This document shows, in pieces, positions 3,784-55,684 of a stretch of 64,000 nucleotides of DNA (its first letter is position 1; every line of letters starts with the position of its first letter). Origin of the DNA: an uncultured Verrucomicrobiae bacterium. Its GTDB lineage: Bacteria; Chlamydiota; Chlamydiia; Chlamydiales; Rhabdochlamydiaceae. The translations under genes were made by a program, and so were the position numbers. Below the pieces are notes generated by a model that saw only the letters and a program-made list of their open reading frames with translations, did no database searches and was not told the origin of the DNA. The DNA is taken from the NCBI GenBank assembly GCA_963718565.1, contig OY970364.1, positions 1,613,802 through 1,677,801 of the forward strand, written 5' to 3'.

Positions 3784-3879
3784 AACTATCCTTAGAGTCA
3801 GCCCACAAACCTGTTACTAGACTTGTGGACTCACCCTTACGACCTGGCCTCTTTTTACAATTTTTTTTTACAACTGTCT

Positions 3880-5052
3880 ATGAAAAAGTCGGAATCTAAA
3901 GAAGACATCTCTGCAATTGATCGCCTTCATCCAGTGAAATCGGTCATTAAAGAACGTTATCCCCTCACTAAACCTGGATCGACAAAGAACACCTATCATG
4001 TTTCTCTGGATTTCCATGATGCGCCCATTCGATTTAAAGTAGGCGACTCCATTGGGATCTATCCTCAAAATGACCCGCACCTTGTTCAACATTTGATTGG
4101 AGCGATGAAAGCACGTGGCAGCGAACGTATTCATGACCCGCGTAGCGGAACAGACATGACGTTATGGGATTTCCTAAGTTTCAAAGCCAATCTTTCTCGG
4201 CTCAACAGTTCTTTTCTTAAACTCTTCTATGAGCGCGAGACGCTGCACGACAAAAAAAACCATCTCCATCGCCTTTTGCAGCAAGAGAATAAATCCCTCC
4301 TTTTACAATACTTAAACACGCACGACCCTCTCGATCTTTTTAAAGAGTACAGTAATATCCAAGCTCCGCTTCAAGAAGTCTGTACACAATTTGGGCCCTT
4401 GCTTCCCCGTTTTTATTCTGTCGCCTCATCACAGCTTGTTTTTAAAAATGAAGTGCATCTCACAGTAGCCCTTTTCAGTTTTTCTCATCAGGGAGAACAG
4501 CGCTATGGCGTTGGAAGTCATTTTCTCTGCCATCTTGCTGCCATCAAAGACACTGAAGTTCCCATCTACGTCCAACCTGCCCACTATTTCACTTTGCCCC
4601 CCGATGACGATGCGCCGATCATCATGATAGGCCCGGGAACAGGCGTTGCCCCTTATCGCGCATTCATGCAGGAAAGATCAGCCAAAAGAGCGCAAGGAAA
4701 AAACTGGCTCTTTTTTGGCGAGCGCAATTGTAAGACGGACTATTTTTATGAAGAAGACTGGACGCGATGGATAGCAGAAGGGAAATTAAGAGTAGACCTC
4801 GCTTTTTCTCGAGATCAACCCGATAAAATTTATGTTCAACACAGAATGCATGAAAATGCTAAAGAAATTTGGGCATGGCTGGAAGAAGGAGCATATTTTT
4901 ATGTCTGCGGAGATGCCCATCGCATGGCAAAAGATGTCGAGACGATGTTGCAGCAAATCGCCCAAGAGCAGGGGGGCATGAGCGAAGAAGCCGCAAAAGC
5001 CTATGTCAAAAATCTTCGATTACAGAAACGTTACCTTGCTGATGTTTATTAA
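3880..5052 (+). CDS. cysJ: Sulfite reductase flavoprotein (CysJ-like FAD/NADPH module, no flavodoxin domain)
   Basis: PRFYSVASS, MIGPGTGVAPYR, WLFFGER, LAFSRDQ, YVCGDA, terminal RYLADVY. Confidence 0.85.
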   Translation: MKKSESKEDISAIDRLHPVKSVIKERYPLTKPGSTKNTYHVSLDFHDAPIRFKVGDSIGIYPQNDPHLVQHLIGAMKARGSERIHDPRSGTDMTLWDFLSFKANLSRLNSSFLKLFYERETLHDKKNHLHRLLQQENKSLLLQYLNTHDPLDLFKEYSNIQAPLQEVCTQFGPLLPRFYSVASSQLVFKNEVHLTVALFSFSHQGEQRYGVGSHFLCHLAAIKDTEVPIYVQPAHYFTLPPDDDAPIIMIGPGTGVAPYRAFMQERSAKRAQGKNWLFFGERNCKTDYFYEEDWTRWIAEGKLRVDLAFSRDQPDKIYVQHRMHENAKEIWAWLEEGAYFYVCGDAHRMAKDVETMLQQIAQEQGGMSEEAAKAYVKNLRLQKRYLADVY

Positions 5053-5061
5053 TCCAAGTTG

Positions 5062-5167
5062 CTAATCGATCACCCTTGAAATTCGCTTGGAGGCGAATTT
5101 CAAGGGTGATCGATTGGGCAAGGCCGCAGCCAGTCTAAATTCACAAAACCTGACGGAGCGCGGTATA
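5062..5167. repeat. Long hairpin followed by the right end of repeat family H
   Basis: AATCGATCACCCTTGAAATTCGC..GCGAATTTCAAGGGTGATCGATT stem; the last ~60 nt are nearly identical to 19403-19462. Confidence 0.75.
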
Positions 5168-18460: not shown

Positions 18461-19207
18461 ATGGCAGCGATTGAAATCTCGGAAACGCTTAAAGATGAAT
18501 TGCTTAAATTTTTAAAAAAAAGCAAAAAAGCAGATCTCATCACAACCTATCTCTTTTTTTTGGAAAAAAAATTTAATATCGACCCCGTCCTCTTCATTCG
18601 TGATAAAATGATTTTTCAAAGCGAGGACGAGTTAGTAGACAAGTTAGAGTCTCAGGGAAAGCTTTGGCGCGAGACAGAGATTAAGATCCAATACGGACAA
18701 CAAAGTGTCAATGAGCAAACAAAAAAAGTGTATATCTGTCCATTTACCGGCAAAGTTTTTGGCGACAATACTCACCCCAATCCGCAAGATGCCATTTACG
18801 ATTGGGTGTCAAAATGTCCAGAAAACAAGGAGCGTGTCGGAGGACTGAAGGCCAAGCGTTTTTTTGTCTCTGAAGATCTTGAAGTGATCAAAAACTACAT
18901 CGTCAAACGCAAAGAGCCAATCACAAAGATTGTTTATTCCTCTGCAGTTACAGGAAAACTATTCAACAGCAAGGAAGCCGTCCTCGACGATTTTGTCAAA
19001 AATCAACTGAAGCCAATTCCTTTAGAAGAAGTTCCTAATCAAAATCGTTTCCAAATCGAAGAAACCTTTCTCGCCTTCATTCAAAAACAGCTTGAAGAAG
19101 GTAAAATCAATTCATTTGTAGAATCTTTATCACAATACGATGAATTCTCATCCTACATCGATCAGTGGCTGGAGGAGGTCAAAGAAGAGTCTGAAGATGA
19201 AGGGTAA
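18461..19207 (+). CDS. Chlamydiae-specific conserved protein (DUF2709-like)
   Basis: YICPFTGKVF..NPQDAIYDW..CP signature; position upstream of tsaE. Confidence 0.8.
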   Translation: MAAIEISETLKDELLKFLKKSKKADLITTYLFFLEKKFNIDPVLFIRDKMIFQSEDELVDKLESQGKLWRETEIKIQYGQQSVNEQTKKVYICPFTGKVFGDNTHPNPQDAIYDWVSKCPENKERVGGLKAKRFFVSEDLEVIKNYIVKRKEPITKIVYSSAVTGKLFNSKEAVLDDFVKNQLKPIPLEEVPNQNRFQIEETFLAFIQKQLEEGKINSFVESLSQYDEFSSYIDQWLEEVKEESEDEG

Positions 19208-19231
19208 ACCTTTGGCCGTCTTTTTCAAGAT

Positions 19232-19882
19232 ATGTTATACCGCGCGCAGGAAGGTTTTGTGAATTTGGACTCAGCGAGGCAAAGCACAATCGAAGCTTGC
19301 GGTCCGAATGACGAAGCCATAGTGAAAACTATGGCTGCGGAGACACGAGAAGGTCTAGTAGACCTTCGCAGTGCAGAGCAGGTGAACGAAGCGAACGGGG
19401 AGGATCGATTGGGCAAAGCCGCAGCCAGTCCAAATTCACAAAACCTGACGGAGCGCGGTATATTTGCTAAACATACCACACACTCCCCCGAAGAAACTCA
19501 TCGTTTAGGAAAAGCCTTTGGCCAATCCCTAACTTCCGGTTCCATCATTGCTTTCTTTGGAGACCTCGGTGCAGGTAAAACGACTTTTATTCGCGGTCTT
19601 GTCGATGGGATCGGCTCAGTCGATATGAGAAACGTGTGCAGCCCAACGTTCACTCTCTTGAATATCTACAATGGGGACAAAATGGTATTTCATTTCGATC
19701 TTTATCGACTCCCTAGAGAAGAAGAATTTTTTGCCGCTGGATTTGATGAATATTTTAAAGCTGGGGGCATTTGTTGCTTGGAATGGGCTGAAAAAATTAC
19801 CTCCTCGCTCCCTACTCATACTTTCAAGGTCATTTTTTCTCACCTCGGAGAAAAAACAAGACAAATTGAGATTTTAAAATGA
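19232..19882 (+). CDS. tsaE: tRNA threonylcarbamoyladenosine biosynthesis ATPase TsaE with a MITE-derived 75-aa insertion after residue 2
   Basis: GDLGAGKTTF, CSPTFTL, HFDLYRL, LEWAE; N-terminal block coincides with repeat H. Confidence 0.92.
   Translation: MLYRAQEGFVNLDSARQSTIEACGPNDEAIVKTMAAETREGLVDLRSAEQVNEANGEDRLGKAAASPNSQNLTERGIFAKHTTHSPEETHRLGKAFGQSLTSGSIIAFFGDLGAGKTTFIRGLVDGIGSVDMRNVCSPTFTLLNIYNGDKMVFHFDLYRLPREEEFFAAGFDEYFKAGGICCLEWAEKITSSLPTHTFKVIFSHLGEKTRQIEILK
19236..19462. mobile_element. Family H MITE, in frame in tsaE
   Basis: TATACCGCGC..GCGCGGTATA ends, longer imperfect IR GGTTTTGTGAATTTGGACT/AGTCCAAATTCACAAAACC; net 225 bp after TA duplication; second partial copy at 5100-5167. 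Confidence 0.88.
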
Positions 19883-24619: not shown

Positions 24620-24897
24620 ATTCAAGATTTGGAAATTTGGCAAGGCTGCGGATACTTTGAAAATGTCCAGTGGATATTTTCAAAGAGGAGCAGGTGAGCA
24701 AAGCGAACCGGCCCGGAGGGCGCCCTGAATTTGAGCCAGCATATGCGGCGCTGCTGCGGACACTTATCAAAAGAGCACGATTGCTCTTTTGTAAGAGAAG
24801 CAGGCACAACTTGAATAAGTTGTGCGATGCAGGCGGGCTCAAATACAGCGGCTGCCCGACGTAGCCAGAAACCAAATCCTGAGTTCATTTCGGTATA
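24607..24897. mobile_element. Family D MITE, long form (291 bp) overlapping the translocase stop
   Basis: TATACCGAAATGAA..TTCATTTCGGTATA; TA at both ends; homologous to 36317-36490 and 51522-51695. Confidence 0.9.
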
Positions 24898-27782: not shown

Positions 27783-28841
27783 ATGGAATACGCCAGAGAA
27801 TCGATTCTCATCTCAGCAATACGCATCTTGTGCAAAGCTTTTGCCGGAGTCATTGGTGTTTTGCTAGGCATACTATTAATTTTCCTTGCACTGATGATGT
27901 TTTCCTCGCCGGATATTTATCCTCCGAAAAGCTCTCTTGAAATTTCTCCTGATGCAAATGGCCAGCGCGAGCTTCTTCCTCATACCTCTCCAGTGCTTTT
28001 AAAAATGGATATCACAGGTGTGATTGGCCAAGGCGATTTGATAGCTAATAAATTTCAAAATTCTTTATTCGATTCCCACGAAGGCATGTTCTCGCCAGAT
28101 CGCGTTAAAGGCATTCTTCTGCATATCAATACACCTGGAGGAACCGTTGATGACGCGGACGGAATTTATCGCGCCCTTTTGAATTACAAGAAAAAATATC
28201 AAGTGCCGATTTACGCTTATGTTGATGGCATGTGCGCATCAGGCGGCATGTACATCGCTTCCTCTTGTGATAAAATTTTTGCTTCGCCCTCGAGCGTCAT
28301 CGGCTCTATCGGTGTGATTTTGGGCCCCGCGTTCAATTTCTCGGGGCTGATGGACAGGTATGGAGTCCAAGCCTTGACAATCACTCAAGGTAAGGACAAA
28401 GACATGCTTAACCCGTTTAGGCCATGGCAACCTGGGGAAGATGCTTCTTTACGCAATATCACCGCTGATCTCTATCAGCGCTTTGTTTCCATTGTGATAG
28501 CAGCACGGCCTAACTTAGATCAGGATAAACTGGTCAACGAATACGGCGCGCAAGTTTTTGTCGCAGGCGATGCGCAAAAGCTCGGCTATGTCGATGACGG
28601 CAATGCGGATTATACAGTTGCAGTTTCAGAGCTTGCAAAAGCGGCAAAAATCTCCGATAACCAAAGATATCAAGTGATGACCATTTCCCCCATGCGCCCA
28701 TTCCTTGCGGACATTACTCAGGGAAAACTTTCGCTGCTCTCTGGAAAAGTGACCCATCATTTTCAAATCAATGCATTTATGAACTCTGAATTAAGCGGAC
28801 GATTTCTCTATATGTATCAACCCGGCCTCGAATTTCAGTAA
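27783..28841 (+). CDS. sohB: S49-family peptidase (SppA/SohB-like)
   Basis: INTPGG, CASGGMYIA, GSIGV, GKDKD; position upstream of polA. Confidence 0.85.
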   Translation: MEYARESILISAIRILCKAFAGVIGVLLGILLIFLALMMFSSPDIYPPKSSLEISPDANGQRELLPHTSPVLLKMDITGVIGQGDLIANKFQNSLFDSHEGMFSPDRVKGILLHINTPGGTVDDADGIYRALLNYKKKYQVPIYAYVDGMCASGGMYIASSCDKIFASPSSVIGSIGVILGPAFNFSGLMDRYGVQALTITQGKDKDMLNPFRPWQPGEDASLRNITADLYQRFVSIVIAARPNLDQDKLVNEYGAQVFVAGDAQKLGYVDDGNADYTVAVSELAKAAKISDNQRYQVMTISPMRPFLADITQGKLSLLSGKVTHHFQINAFMNSELSGRFLYMYQPGLEFQ

Positions 28842-28899: not shown

Positions 28900-29007
28900 T
28901 AACCACCCGTTCGCTTCGCTCACTAGAGGGCACAGAGAGCACAGAGAAAAAAAATCCTCCCTCTGTGCTCTCTGTGCCCTCTAGTGAACGAAGCGAACGG
29001 GTGGTTA
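28900..29007. repeat. Family I palindrome (108 bp)
   Basis: About 46-bp arms AACCACCCGTTCGCTTCGCTCACTAGAGGGCACAGAGAGCACAGAG, one mismatch. Confidence 0.9.
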
Positions 29008-29037: not shown

Positions 29038-31713
29038 ATGGAAAAAATTTACATCGTCGACGCTGTTAATTTCTTATTCCGATCCTACTATGCAATCGGG
29101 CCGATGACCAATGCAAAAGGGGAATCGACCAATGCCCTTTACGGATTCATCCGTTCCCTTTTCAAATTGATGAATGAATTCTCCCCGGATTATTTTGTGG
29201 CGGTCTTCGATGGTCCTGAAAACAAAAAGTCGCGGTCGGAGATTTATAGCGAATATAAGAGCCACCGCACAGGAATGCCCGAGGATCTTTTCCCCCAATT
29301 AAACCAGGCTCTGCATTTTTGCGAGATTGCGGGAATACCCTACCTTTCCGTGACTGGAGTCGAAGCAGATGATACCATGGGAAGCATTGCCCGATGGATG
29401 GAAAAAAAAGGCATTCAAGTTTTTCTCTGCACCAGCGATAAAGACCTTTGCCAACTCGTCTCGGATCATATTTTCATCATCAATCCTCATAAAGATAATC
29501 TCCTCATCGATCGGGAAAAAGTGAAAGAGCTATTCGGGGTGACTCCCGAACAGATTGTCGATCTTTTAGCAATGGTCGGTGATGCCTCTGACAACATTCC
29601 TGGACTTGAAGGATTTGGTCCAAAAACTGCTGCATCTCTTCTGAGCGAATTCGGTACACTAGAATACATTCTCGCACATCCCGAAAAATTGAGCGGTAAA
29701 AAGAAAGAGGTGATCATCAATGACAAAGAGATTGCCTTGATGAGTAAAAAATTGGCGATCATCCATACGGATATTCCTTTTCCTCACGAAGAAAGATTCT
29801 TTCACTTAAAGACTCCCGATTTGGAAAGAGTCAAAGAATTTTATCATGAAATGCGTTTCATGTCCCTTTTACGCGAACTGGGTATTGAAGAAGAAACCCC
29901 TTCAAAAGGGCGACCTATCAAAGAGCCTATTGCTTTCCATTATCATCTTATCGACGATGAAGAAACTCTTGAAGAATTAGTCCATCGCCTTGAAAAAGAA
30001 AAAGAGATTTGCCTCGATACCGAGACAACAGATATTCGTCCTATGCAGGCAAAACTTGTCGGAATCGGCCTCGGTATCCGTCCTGGTGAAGCTTGGTACA
30101 TCCCCCTTAATGGCAAACTCGGAAAAGAAAGGGGACTTAGCCTATTAAAGCCTTTACTGGAAAATGACCAGATTGGCTTTATCGGCCATAACATTAAGTA
30201 CGACCTTCATGTCCTGCGCAACGAAAACATCACCCTGCCGAACATTGCCTTCGACACCATCCTTGCTTCTTATTTAATCAGTCCACAAACTCAGCGGCAC
30301 AATCTCGATGGGCTTTCCTTGGAAAAATTTGGCGAGGTCAAAATTCCTATCGAAGATCTGATCGGCAAAGGGAAAAAACAGATCTCGATGAACGAGGTTC
30401 CCTTAGATAAAATCACCCATTATTGTTGCGAGGACGTCGATTTTACTCTAAGACTAAAGCAGCTCTTTGAAAAAGATTTAGAACTCATGGAATTGACCCC
30501 TCTTTTTGAGCAGATTGAGCTTCCTCTGATTCCCATCTTAGCACAAATGGAGAGAAATGGGATCTATGTCGATGTGAAAAAACTTGAGAAAATGTCCGAA
30601 GAACTCAAAAGAAAGATCAAAGAATTGGAGCATCAGATCTATGATCTTGCTGGAGAGCAATTCAATATCAATTCTCCAAGACAGCTAAGCGTGATTCTTT
30701 TTGAAAAAATGGGGATAAAAGCTCCAAAAAAAACAGCAACTGGCTATTCCACTGCGTTTGACGTCCTCGATTCTCTTAAAGAAGAGGCGCCGATCGTTAA
30801 AAAAATCATCGAATATAGAACTTTAGAGAAACTGCGCTCGACTTATGTCGATTCACTTCCTGAACAAATCAACCCTACTACTCATCGGATTCACTGCACA
30901 TTTAATCAATCCGTTGCCGCTACAGGACGGCTTTCCTGCCAAGATCCCAATCTGCAGAATATTCCCGTACGCACTGAAGAAGGAATGAAAATTCGCGAAG
31001 CCTTCAGACCTCAAAAGCCGCACTACAGTTTTGTCGCTGCCGATTATTCCCAGATTGAACTGCGCCTGCTTGCGCACCTTTCTGGAGATCCCTCCCTCCT
31101 CAAAGCTTTCCAGGAAGGAGAAGATGTCCATACTTATACGGCTGCGCTCGTCTTTGGCATTCCCCTGCAAGAAGTGACTCCCCAGATGCGCTATCGAGCC
31201 AAAGCCGTCAACTTTGGCATTATCTACGGTCAGCAAGCTTTCGGGCTCTCGCAGCAATTGGGGATCAGTTACAACGAAGCAGAAGAGTTTATTCATACTT
31301 ATTTTGAAAGATACGCAAAAGTAAAAGAATTTCTTAACTTCTGTAAAGAAAGCGTTCGCAAAACAGGACGAGCTGTCACTTTGACGGGCAGACAACGGCC
31401 GATTCCTGAGATCCATAGCAAAAACCCCACAATTCGCGCCGCTGCTGAAAGGCTGGCTATCAATACGCCATTACAAGGAACAGCTGCCGATTTGATTAAA
31501 ATGGCTATGGTCCAAGTGGATGCACATCTTAAAAAACATCCCGATGAAGGTAACATGATCCTGCAAATCCATGATGAGCTTTTGTTTGAAACAGCCGATG
31601 AACAAGCAAAAAAGCTCTCTAGTCAAGTAAAAAACATAATGGAAGGGATATTTGCCTTGAATATCCCCCTCATTGTTAATATTTCTATTGGAAAAAACTG
31701 GAGAGAATGTTAA
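29038..31713 (+). CDS. polA: DNA polymerase I
   Basis: 5'-3' exo (EADD, SDKD, GDASDNIPG), LDTETT, TGRLSCQDPNLQN, ADYSQIELR, KAVNFGIIYG, QIHDEL. Confidence 0.98.
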   Translation: MEKIYIVDAVNFLFRSYYAIGPMTNAKGESTNALYGFIRSLFKLMNEFSPDYFVAVFDGPENKKSRSEIYSEYKSHRTGMPEDLFPQLNQALHFCEIAGIPYLSVTGVEADDTMGSIARWMEKKGIQVFLCTSDKDLCQLVSDHIFIINPHKDNLLIDREKVKELFGVTPEQIVDLLAMVGDASDNIPGLEGFGPKTAASLLSEFGTLEYILAHPEKLSGKKKEVIINDKEIALMSKKLAIIHTDIPFPHEERFFHLKTPDLERVKEFYHEMRFMSLLRELGIEEETPSKGRPIKEPIAFHYHLIDDEETLEELVHRLEKEKEICLDTETTDIRPMQAKLVGIGLGIRPGEAWYIPLNGKLGKERGLSLLKPLLENDQIGFIGHNIKYDLHVLRNENITLPNIAFDTILASYLISPQTQRHNLDGLSLEKFGEVKIPIEDLIGKGKKQISMNEVPLDKITHYCCEDVDFTLRLKQLFEKDLELMELTPLFEQIELPLIPILAQMERNGIYVDVKKLEKMSEELKRKIKELEHQIYDLAGEQFNINSPRQLSVILFEKMGIKAPKKTATGYSTAFDVLDSLKEEAPIVKKIIEYRTLEKLRSTYVDSLPEQINPTTHRIHCTFNQSVAATGRLSCQDPNLQNIPVRTEEGMKIREAFRPQKPHYSFVAADYSQIELRLLAHLSGDPSLLKAFQEGEDVHTYTAALVFGIPLQEVTPQMRYRAKAVNFGIIYGQQAFGLSQQLGISYNEAEEFIHTYFERYAKVKEFLNFCKESVRKTGRAVTLTGRQRPIPEIHSKNPTIRAAAERLAINTPLQGTAADLIKMAMVQVDAHLKKHPDEGNMILQIHDELLFETADEQAKKLSSQVKNIMEGIFALNIPLIVNISIGKNWREC

Positions 31714-48141: not shown

Positions 48142-48385
48142 TATACTGCGCCCAGCCTAAAAATATGAATTTAGGGAGTCTTAGAACAGCCCAGGCTTGA
48201 GCGAAGCAAAGCGCTCGTGACGAGGAGGTACTAAATTAATACCTCCGAGGCTGCGGACACTTTGCAAATGTCCGGTGGACATTTGCGAAGGGAAGCAAGT
48301 GAGCGAAGCGAACCGGGAAGATCGTTCAAAAATGGGCTGTTATAATGGCCCCGTAAATTCACATTTTTAGGCTGGACGCAGTATA
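48142..48385. mobile_element. Family M MITE containing a nested family K element
   Basis: About 33-bp TIR TATACTGCG(C/T)CCAGCCTAAAAAT(A/G)TGAATTTA; TA ends. Confidence 0.85.
48182..48344. mobile_element. Family K MITE (163 bp)
   Basis: TA(G/T)AACAGCCCA ends; carries the GGCTGCG..GCGAACCGG module. Confidence 0.7.
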
Positions 48386-55455: not shown

Positions 55456-55684
55456 GAGGGAATTGCAAAACTCCTCGCCAGCAGAAAATCGATGATTTTG
55501 GCACCTGTTGCCAGAACCCGCACAGCGGGTTCGGTTGGCGGCGGCGAAAGCATACTTGGATAAGTTGGCTGCGAAGACACGAAAAGGTCCGGGGAACCTT
55601 CGTAAGTAGCAAAGCAGGTGAGCGAAGAGCGAACCGGGGCCGAAGGCAGCCGCCGCCAAGGCAACAGGTGCCAAAAGCGCGATT
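55456..55684. mobile_element. Family E copy carrying the extra ~80-nt module, one end truncated
   Basis: Aligns to the reverse complement of 59969-60150 apart from the insert at 55566-55647. Confidence 0.85.

Follow-up and report, generated by a model that had tools for sequence, protein, structure and literature searches.

A family of in-frame palindromic repeats in Chlamydiota and its copy in the tsaE gene of a rhabdochlamydial genome

Palindromic repeats that insert in frame into unrelated genes and encode a conserved peptide there are known from Rickettsia as the Rickettsia palindromic elements (RPEs) RPE-1 to RPE-10 (Ogata et al. 2000, 2002; summarised in PMC10969869 and PMC1458961). Rickettsia bellii has 526 RPEs, 53 of which are in genes (PMC10969869, PMC1458961). 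A 2024 review of MITEs (miniature transposable elements with inverted repeats) singles out the RPEs as an extreme case and never mentions Chlamydia, and the main genomics paper on the Rhabdochlamydiaceae deals solely with insertion sequences that bear a transposase. In-frame palindromic repeats have so far been treated as near-unique to Rickettsia. The title of a 2002 paper by Ogata et al. reportedly calls them "unique but recurrent". Here, a palindromic MITE is described that lies in frame near the start of the tRNA-modification gene tsaE in an uncultured bacterium of the Rhabdochlamydiaceae. The stretch of DNA analysed, referred to as the window, comprises 64,000 nucleotides (contig OY970364.1 of assembly GCA_963718565.1, positions 1,613,802 to 1,677,801 of the forward strand). 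The element is one copy of a dispersed repeat, and the data support a new RPE-like family, found in a second phylum of intracellular bacteria and backed by unusually clean statistics for coding compatibility.

The chlamydial family and the RPEs are alike in that both consist of short palindromes of an obligate intracellular lineage, often located in unrelated housekeeping genes. Both are inserted in frame, carry a peptide that is conserved in one frame, and occur as genic and intergenic copies. RPEs leave the host fold apparently intact, and the chlamydial repeats may do so too, to judge from the model of one host, TsaE. Their carriers are different, being Alphaproteobacteria for the RPEs and Chlamydiota here, and no sequence relationship is detectable, the two having been compared through peptide profiles and not through DNA consensus sequences. 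Unlike RPEs, the chlamydial repeats have clear terminal inverted repeats, a TA duplication, two end types and a nested second-order module, and their size range of 164-299 bp is wider. In-frame insertion into unrelated genes with a conserved peptide is thus common to both groups, whereas by sequence the chlamydial repeats are not RPEs.

Another family of comparable elements is found in Neisseria. Correia elements (Correia repeat enclosed elements, CREE) resemble the chlamydial repeats in their TA duplication, their termini starting with TATA, their size scale of 100-250 bp, their long hairpin transcript and the lack of a known cognate transposase, and also in the outward promoter-like -35/-10 pair that forms at the terminus (PMC10969869). 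They differ in that their inverted repeats are unrelated, that they are overwhelmingly intergenic, and that they exert promoter, integration host factor (IHF)-site and RNase III effects instead of in-frame coding; no rule by which lengths are multiples of 3 bp (3n) is described for them. The Correia terminal repeat is of the TATAGCGGATTAACAAAAATCAGGAC type, whereas the termini of the chlamydial element read TATACCGCGCGCAGGAAGGTTTTGTGAATTTGGACT, and the common part is the leading TATA only.

QMITE1 and QMITE2 of Coxiella burnetii are likewise MITEs of an intracellular bacterium that overlap annotated open reading frames (ORFs) and add or alter protein termini (PMC5896051). QMITE1 is 300-400 bp long, has variable direct repeats of 2-4 bp, and encodes very basic peptides (isoelectric point, pI, ~12) that constitute the Pfam family DUF1658; its overlaps with functional genes are mostly C-terminal and range from a few to ~50 bp (PMC5896051). 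The chlamydial family, in contrast, encodes an acidic peptide (pI 4.6 in the window copy), targets TA and places whole elements inside domains and linkers. MITEs derived from IS630/Tc1-mariner elements also combine a TA target-site duplication with terminal inverted repeats, but no IS630-type or other transposase with matching ends was found in ~0.7 Mb of loci, and the relationship is only a lead.

The insertion in tsaE

The element is a 227-bp imperfect palindrome at 19236-19462, between codons 2 and 3 of tsaE (coordinates are those of the window). Its parts, its host gene and the second copy in the window are as follows.

19232-19882, + strand: tsaE ORF with the insertion, 216 amino acids including 75 inserted codons, stop codon at 19880-19882 (ORF list)
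19236-19237, no strand: left copy of the TA target; the empty site of L001 and L002, ATG T-TA-TTT, has one TA and the window two; TA is found here in 32/44 family copies
19238-19460, + strand: element proper, 223 bp, TACCGCGC...GCGCGGTA; left to right (L->R) is the sense orientation of the encoded peptide
19461-19462, no strand: right copy of the TA target, forming the last two bases of a new ATA (Ile) codon; TA is found here in 39/44 family copies
19236-19306, + strand: left inverted-repeat arm, 71 nt, 73% complementary to 19392-19462 (repeat search)
19392-19462, + strand: right inverted-repeat arm (repeat search); this arm alone recurs at 5108-5167
19342-19398, + strand: nested 57-bp module, a hairpin GAAGGTCTA/TAGACCTTC with a GCAGGTGAACGAAGCGAAC tail, encoding approximately ETREGLVDLRSAEQVNEAN; missing from near-identical 170-bp copies
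19248-19261, + strand: candidate element-borne start, with a Shine-Dalgarno (SD)-like AGGAAGG at 19248-19254, TTTT and the in-frame GTG 19259 (sequence and database gene call)
19463-19879, + strand: unaltered TsaE core, 139 codons, with the Walker A motif GAGKT at 19568-19582 (homologue alignment; ratio of nonsynonymous to synonymous substitution rates, dN/dS; AlphaFold)
5108-5167, + strand: second copy, truncated to the right arm, in intergenic DNA 3' of ORF 3823-5052 (blastn, 96.7% over 60 nt)

An earlier note on this DNA, made from the sequence alone, had proposed a 227-bp element with these boundaries, and both of its ends were located by sequence: TATACCGCGC at 19236-19245 and GCGCGGTATA at 19453-19462, the ATG being at 19232. 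Taking out 225 bp, as the note had envisaged, restores ATG TTA TTT GCT AAA CAT (MLFAKHTT), and the nearest homologues begin MLFTKHTT. The insert indeed contains no in-frame stop, with ORF 19232-19882 open for 216 amino acids, and the peptide that the note gives as an example for proteomics, AAASPNSQNLTER, is present in its translation. The absence of in-frame ATG, GTG or TTG codons between 19463 and the Walker A codons can be read from the sequence, as had been claimed; the internal in-frame GTG 19322 and ATG 19331 are there too, together with GTG 19259, TTG 19265, GTG 19382 and TTG 19409.

The empty site that the note had wanted sought exists in three related metagenome loci (L001, L002 and L003), which are syntenic with the window and have in common with it the gene order DUF2709, tsaE, engB-like GTPase, RNase T, pgk, ATP/ADP translocase. 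With DUF2709 and the translocase in it, this order identifies the organism as a chlamydia. In these loci tsaE starts ATG TTA TTT ACC (L001, L002) or ATG CTA TTT ACC (L003), whereas the window reads ATG T-TA-(TACCGCGC...GCGCGGTA)-TA-TTT, a 223-bp element with a duplicated TA. Because the relatives have a single TA at this site, the insertion amounts to 225 bp net, or 75 codons, with duplication of the TA target. The note had also conceded that relatives might prove to carry the same extension, and they do not: the 119 other listed homologues of the 216-residue protein (45-87% identical, mostly ~144 amino acids) cover 51-75% of the query, which corresponds to the core, and the insert region has no match in the 14 TsaE homologues that were aligned, the closest eight included, of which the close ones start MLFTKHTT or similar.

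Read support for the insert comes from Logan contigs of public soil metagenomes. Contigs of one run (X2) match 19184-19334 and 19430-19623 exactly, and contigs of another (X5), from a different study and year, match 19363-19545 exactly, both junctions being crossed by independent short-read contigs. The runs that carry the tsaE allele without differences belong to two studies, dated 2020 and 2024. No contig of runs X2 and X5 joins 19237 to 19463, which is the arrangement of the empty allele; contigs drop rare variants, and this is not proof of fixation. Soil metagenome depth is 30-50 in the arms and ~3 in the flanks, a pattern that a repeat with many copies should produce.

Downstream of the insert, the gene retains a TsaE core. 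The Pfam model for TsaE (PF02367) matches residues 84-212 with E = 7e-37 and 126.7 bits against a cut-off of 26.6, and TsaE chains in the PDB align from residue 80 onward (best E = 1e-25). The core is 81-85% identical to its closest homologues, with GAGKT and all invariant columns kept, and has a dN/dS of 0.09 against L001 and L003. An AlphaFold2 model computed from a 67-sequence alignment has predicted local distance difference test (pLDDT) values of 91-98 for residues 81-216 and of 33-59 for residues 1-70. Since the insert precedes the first strand of the TsaE fold, it amounts to an N-terminal appendage, modelled at low confidence and probably flexible, with the TsaE core intact. The inserted peptide is acidic and hydrophilic (pI 4.55, grand average of hydropathy -0.70).

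As RNA, 19236-19462 folds with a minimum free energy of -110.7 kcal/mol, against -64.1 +/- 4.0 kcal/mol for 200 dinucleotide shuffles (z = -11.7), and none of these (0/200) folds as stably. The G+C content is 53% in the element stretch and 43.5% in the window. Rfam searches of the whole window at the gathering score, and of two regions at E <= 10, returned only tRNA-Ser and chance-level matches; neither the element nor its nested module corresponds to a catalogued RNA.

At the right end of the element (19435-19464) stands an outward-facing promoter-like arrangement, TTCACA-18 nt-TATATT (10/12 matches), with its -35 in the right arm and its -10 made up of the element terminus, the TA duplication and the flank. 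A promoter and terminator scan of the region gave counts that are not above those of shuffles. An intein, an intron or another self-removing insert was considered as well and rejected: the inserted peptide starts with Y and ends with GI, without intein-type junction residues, and matches no intron family.

The chlamydial repeat family

To sample loci of the family, a single 20-nt arm motif, AGGTTTTGTGAATTTRGACT, was searched for by exact match. The motif occurs at 57 loci in a one-genome-per-species collection and at 39 loci in metagenome contigs, and has no match in viral contigs. Labels of the carrier bins include Chlamydiae, Rhabdochlamydiaceae, Candidatus Rhabdochlamydia and Candidatus Acheromyda (itself a genus of Rhabdochlamydiaceae); some bins are called Verrucomicrobia or just bacterium. 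Pairing of arms in the genome loci yields 44 complete copies, 164-299 bp long. Two end types are distinguished, L (TACCGCGC-GCAGGA-AGG...) and R (TACCGCGC-TCCGTC-AGG...), and the terminal 36 nt, TA-TACCGCGC-N6-AGGTTTTGTGAATTTGGACT, are conserved at either end of the 44 copies. Of these, 32 have TA as the left flank, 39 as the right flank and 28 as both. The family is a MITE family in having terminal inverted repeats, a TA duplication relative to an empty site, small and dispersed multiple copies, and no transposase ORF. One bin holds four near-identical 170-bp copies (L005, L017, L040 and L045), three of them in genes, which points to recent activity.

The length and reading frame of the copies are compatible with coding. 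Net length is a multiple of 3 bp in 40/44 complete copies (P = 2e-15 against 1/3), and in 12/16 when each distinct length class is counted once (P = 8e-4). The four non-3n copies are all non-genic and all have stops; among 13 further non-duplicate metagenome copies, 8 are 3n. The sense frame (L->R, third base) encodes a conserved hydrophilic peptide, YRAQEGFVNLDSARQS...ASPNSQNLTERGI, with the alignment pattern YRAQEGFVNLDSARQS-IEA...(variable)...EEDRFGKVAASPNSQNLTERGI, and is free of stops in 32/44 copies, whereas after shuffling the share is 3.8%. Stops are likewise missing from two antisense frames, in 29 and 20 of the 44 copies; read in antisense, the sequence yields many W, C and L residues. 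Twenty of the 44 copies, the window copy being the twentieth, lie in long ORFs, every one in the sense frame and in the same orientation, with genic status confirmed by Pfam for ten hosts only. One apparently genic copy in an antisense frame (L032) is probably upstream of the true start of its gene and was left out of this count. The residue that precedes the insert is L, I or V in 16/20 genic copies, as expected if the target TA occupies codon positions 2-3. The census agrees with the suggestion in the earlier note of an RPE-like coding repeat family in a chlamydial lineage.

Besides tsaE, nine host genes have Pfam domains that span or flank the insert.

Heavy-metal P-type ATPase: insert 474-529, inside the HAD domain match 418-679
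E1 dehydrogenase: insert 152-205, inside the match 30-379
SpoU methylase: two domains, with the insert between them
NTase_sub_bind protein: insert interrupts the domain and leaves it in two parts
PriA, FolC-like ligase, LptB-like ABC ATPase, LpxK and a chorismate-binding enzyme (MenF-like): N- or C-terminal copies

A HMMER search with the window peptide against 1.84 billion cluster representatives returned 53 proteins at E <= 0.001, with ThiF-family, DapB, formyltransferase and GrpB-GNAT proteins as further hosts. This search undercounts hosts, since most clusters, built at 50% identity, have a member lacking the insert as their representative. In a word-indexed protein database, a peptide search retrieved nothing beyond 19 short ORFs, namely intergenic copies annotated as genes. 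One 500-residue protein (P0170) carries the element peptide at 318-359 between GrpB (7-144) and a GNAT acetyltransferase domain (413-490), a possible case of two adjacent genes joined into a single ORF by an intergenic copy. At L055 (3734-4786, - strand), half an element, the right arm only, gives the first 18 residues, MDKVAASPNSQNLTERGI, of a 350-residue ORF, a truncated copy joined in frame to the 5' end of a gene.

Another example is found in PriA, where the copies of two different chlamydial bins (L004 and L031), 173 and 299 bp long, occupy the same position and are both open. The site lies after MPDA(Q/K)(R/K) and before AEV(I/V)LD, and the two PriA N-terminal regions are 48% identical overall, insert and gaps included. 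Either an open insert has been inherited vertically over a long time, or the site is a hot spot for insertion.

No family in Pfam, NCBIfam or Rfam matches the element. NCBIfam holds domain models for RPEs; four element peptides had no match in NCBIfam and Pfam at E <= 10. A literature search for palindromic, MITE or RPE-type repeats in Chlamydiae, subscription-only papers not covered, found nothing, and the family is provisionally regarded as previously undescribed.

Within the family, a second repeat is nested. The window copy is the 170-bp form with a clean 57-bp block added at 19342-19398: together with L043, which is also 227 bp long, it differs from the 170-bp copies L005, L017, L040 and L045 by a single clean 57-bp indel. 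Metagenome contigs that skip from 19341 to 19400 are 2-4x deeper than those with the block. Taken with its left-hand motif GGCTGCGGA, the block is a module of ~63 nt, GGCTGCGGA-nAC-(12-14 bp hairpin)-AGCAGGTGARCGAAGYGAACCGG, with invariant flanks GGCTGCGGA ... AGCAGGTGARCGAAGYGAAC. It is nested in family copies L031, L043 and L048, occurs twice in L006 (6709-6772 and 6812-6875), and forms the centre of three otherwise unrelated intergenic palindromes in the window.

24644-24712, + strand: module at the centre of a palindrome
48249-48317, + strand: module at the centre of a palindrome
55567-55638, + strand: module at the centre of a palindrome

All four module copies of the window, including that in tsaE, are on the + strand. 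Across nine copies the module hairpin has compensatory changes at 9/19 predicted pairs. The module has no match in Rfam and is treated as a second-order repeat.

Probable translation of the insert and rival explanations

The most probable account is that a TA-targeting MITE entered codon 2 of tsaE and that the gene still encodes a complete TsaE ATPase with an appendage. A non-autonomous palindromic MITE of 223 bp plus the duplicated TA, presumably mobilised by a transposase acting in trans, entered TTA, the second codon. With the target TA at codon positions 2-3 and the element in L->R orientation, the host codon is kept and followed by 74 element codons (TAC CGC GCG ... GGT), none of them a stop; the last A of the element and the second TA then form the new ATA codon and leave the downstream frame unshifted. 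TsaE would be made with a 75-residue acidic, hydrophilic N-terminal appendage, or one of ~66 residues if the start is GTG 19259 behind the SD-like AGGAAGG, and would stay functional. In compact, gene-dense chlamydial genomes, the family would persist via translatable lineages, tolerated at protein termini, after signal peptides and in inter-domain linkers.

Several points weigh against this account. The -110 kcal/mol hairpin starts 4 nt after the start ATG, its first 10 pairs are GC-rich, and it should hinder initiation at 19232 as well as at 19259. In one RNA run (a metatranscriptome) other family copies are present and the tsaE locus is not. The core dN/dS of ~0.09, measured against L001 and L003, averages the whole divergence and cannot show constraint after the insertion. 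A second tsaE is possible elsewhere, the window being 64 kb of a 2.28-Mb genome. Codon-position diversity gives no clear coding signature, with a modest excess of variation at the third position confined to the left arm, in a test that is confounded by hairpin pairing of codon position 3 with position 2 and by the selection of loci through an exact 20-mer. The non-genic copies are 3n in 20/24 cases, so that the 3n rule is a property of element lineages and not of a filter at each insertion site. A cognate autonomous element with matching ends was not found in the ~0.7 Mb of loci, which is a small sample: among distant arm pairs, looked for in all loci with solo arms, none surrounds an ORF large enough for a transposase, the single pair with wide spacing (L093, 715 bp) leaves too little room for one, and the ORFs beside mid-locus solo arms in L055 and L058 are by sequence not transposases.

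It is possible, though doubtful, that translation starts inside the element, either at ATG 19331 or at GTG 19259, which follows the SD-like AGGAAGG, and not at ATG 19232; the element would then be a portable 5' end that supplies a ribosome-binding site and a start codon. ATG 19232 has no obvious SD sequence upstream and stands 4 nt before the hairpin base. The database gene call for this gene (P0001, 207 amino acids) begins MNLDS at GTG 19259, choosing AGGAAGG-TTTT-GTG over the ancestral ATG, many genic copies lie 10-36 codons from the 5' limit of their ORF, and the annotated N-terminus of the L055 ORF is half an element. However, both internal candidates are within stable stems, and the 4-nt spacing between the SD-like motif and GTG 19259 is short. 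In L034, L052 and L060, moreover, N-terminal copies are placed after a native start and signal peptide, and such elements are read through from the native upstream start. As ATG 19232, GTG 19259 and ATG 19331 are all in or next to stable stems, it is plausible that the hairpin imposes an expression cost.

The cost might even be prohibitive, with a hairpin that blocks initiation or transcription and an allele that is a young pseudogene or strongly down-regulated, compensated by a second tsaE or by low demand. This is consistent with the great stability of a hairpin only 4 nt behind the start codon and with RNA data in which other family copies appear and the tsaE locus does not; TsaE also acts catalytically, and little of it may be needed. 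A crippled allele is nevertheless improbable, given that the 216-codon ORF is intact with every invariant TsaE residue kept and that the same allele recurs unchanged in the runs of both the 2020 and the 2024 study. In addition, many other single-copy housekeeping genes (priA, lpxK, E1 dehydrogenase and P-type ATPase among them) have in-frame copies and cannot all be dead, and chlamydiae normally have one tsaE.

There is also little likelihood that the main role of the family lies at the nucleic-acid level, as a regulatory hairpin, a source of small RNA, a protein-binding site or a promoter donor, with translatability only a condition of survival and the peptide without a role. The strong fold argues for such a role, as do the nested module with its invariant flanks and its compensatory changes at 9/19 pairs, the outward promoter-like TTCACA-18-TATATT at the right end, the presence of family copies in the metatranscriptome, and the intergenic location of more than half of the copies. 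Yet the Rfam searches gave no match, the promoter-like count is not above shuffles, and any DNA palindrome would be expected to covary too. The 3n lengths and the strict sense orientation in genes would be left unexplained, and a nucleic-acid role is compatible with an appendage on TsaE and not opposed to it.

Finally, an assembly artefact and an ancestral N-terminal extension lost in relatives are excluded, having practically no probability left: assemblers can misplace repeats and nothing else speaks for an artefact, whereas independent short-read contigs cross both junctions exactly, a TA duplication flanks the insert where relatives have a single TA, near-identical copies occur in unrelated genes of other genomes, and the insert region is uncovered by the other listed TsaE homologues and absent from the aligned ones.

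Implications and further palindromes of the window

On balance, environmental Chlamydiota, with Rhabdochlamydiaceae prominent among the carriers, appear to have a protein-coding palindrome family of their own, independent of the RPEs, whose lineages may have been selected for translatability, whose nested module would move among palindromes, and some of whose copies, as in PriA, may have stayed open for so long that they amount to acquired protein segments. The grounds for selection on translatability are the 3n lengths even of intergenic copies, the one stop-free hydrophilic frame and the TA-in-codon geometry that keeps the host residue. That a second, unrelated family exists in another phylum of obligate intracellular bacteria suggests that gene-dense genomes drive convergence; if this is true, selfish DNA in compact intracellular genomes has converged on in-frame palindromes as a strategy, and they are not a Rickettsia oddity. 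The family also provides a natural experiment that can show at which places insertions of 55-100 residues are tolerated in proteins, and the tsaE allele offers a ready-made test of the N-terminal cargo tolerated by the TsaBDE system.

The repeats have practical consequences for genome annotation, since gene calls in chlamydial bins are made longer or broken up by the copies. The tsaE call, placed at an internal GTG, has 207 amino acids versus 216 from the ancestral ATG, and intergenic copies are called as hypothetical proteins of 76-118 amino acids (P0121-P0139); in both ways the family distorts the annotation of these bins. Copies also break short-read assemblies, as judged from the many arms at contig ends.

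Other palindromic sequences of the window touch on the family or its module. The partial second copy had been given as 5100-5167 in the earlier note; the repeat itself is real, with 60 nt that are 96.7% identical to the right arm, but that start is slightly early and the actual span is 5108-5167. On its left side the truncated copy is fused to an unrelated perfect 19-bp hairpin, GATCACCCTTGAAATTCGC-TTGGAG-GCGAATTTCAAGGGTGATC, at 5060-5107. This hairpin stands directly 3' of ORF 3823-5052, immediately next to the truncated right arm, and might be either a structure resembling a terminator or what is left of another palindrome that took the place of the left half. Between ORFs 27783-28841 and 29038-31713, at 28905-29005, is an intergenic palindrome that is near-perfect and ~100 bp long. 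Its arms carry CCACCCGTTCGCTTCGCTCACTAGAGGGCACAGAGAGCACAGAG and the complement of this sequence, and with the GTGAACGAAGCGAACGGG motif that it has in common with the nested module, it may be another member of the module's repeat system.

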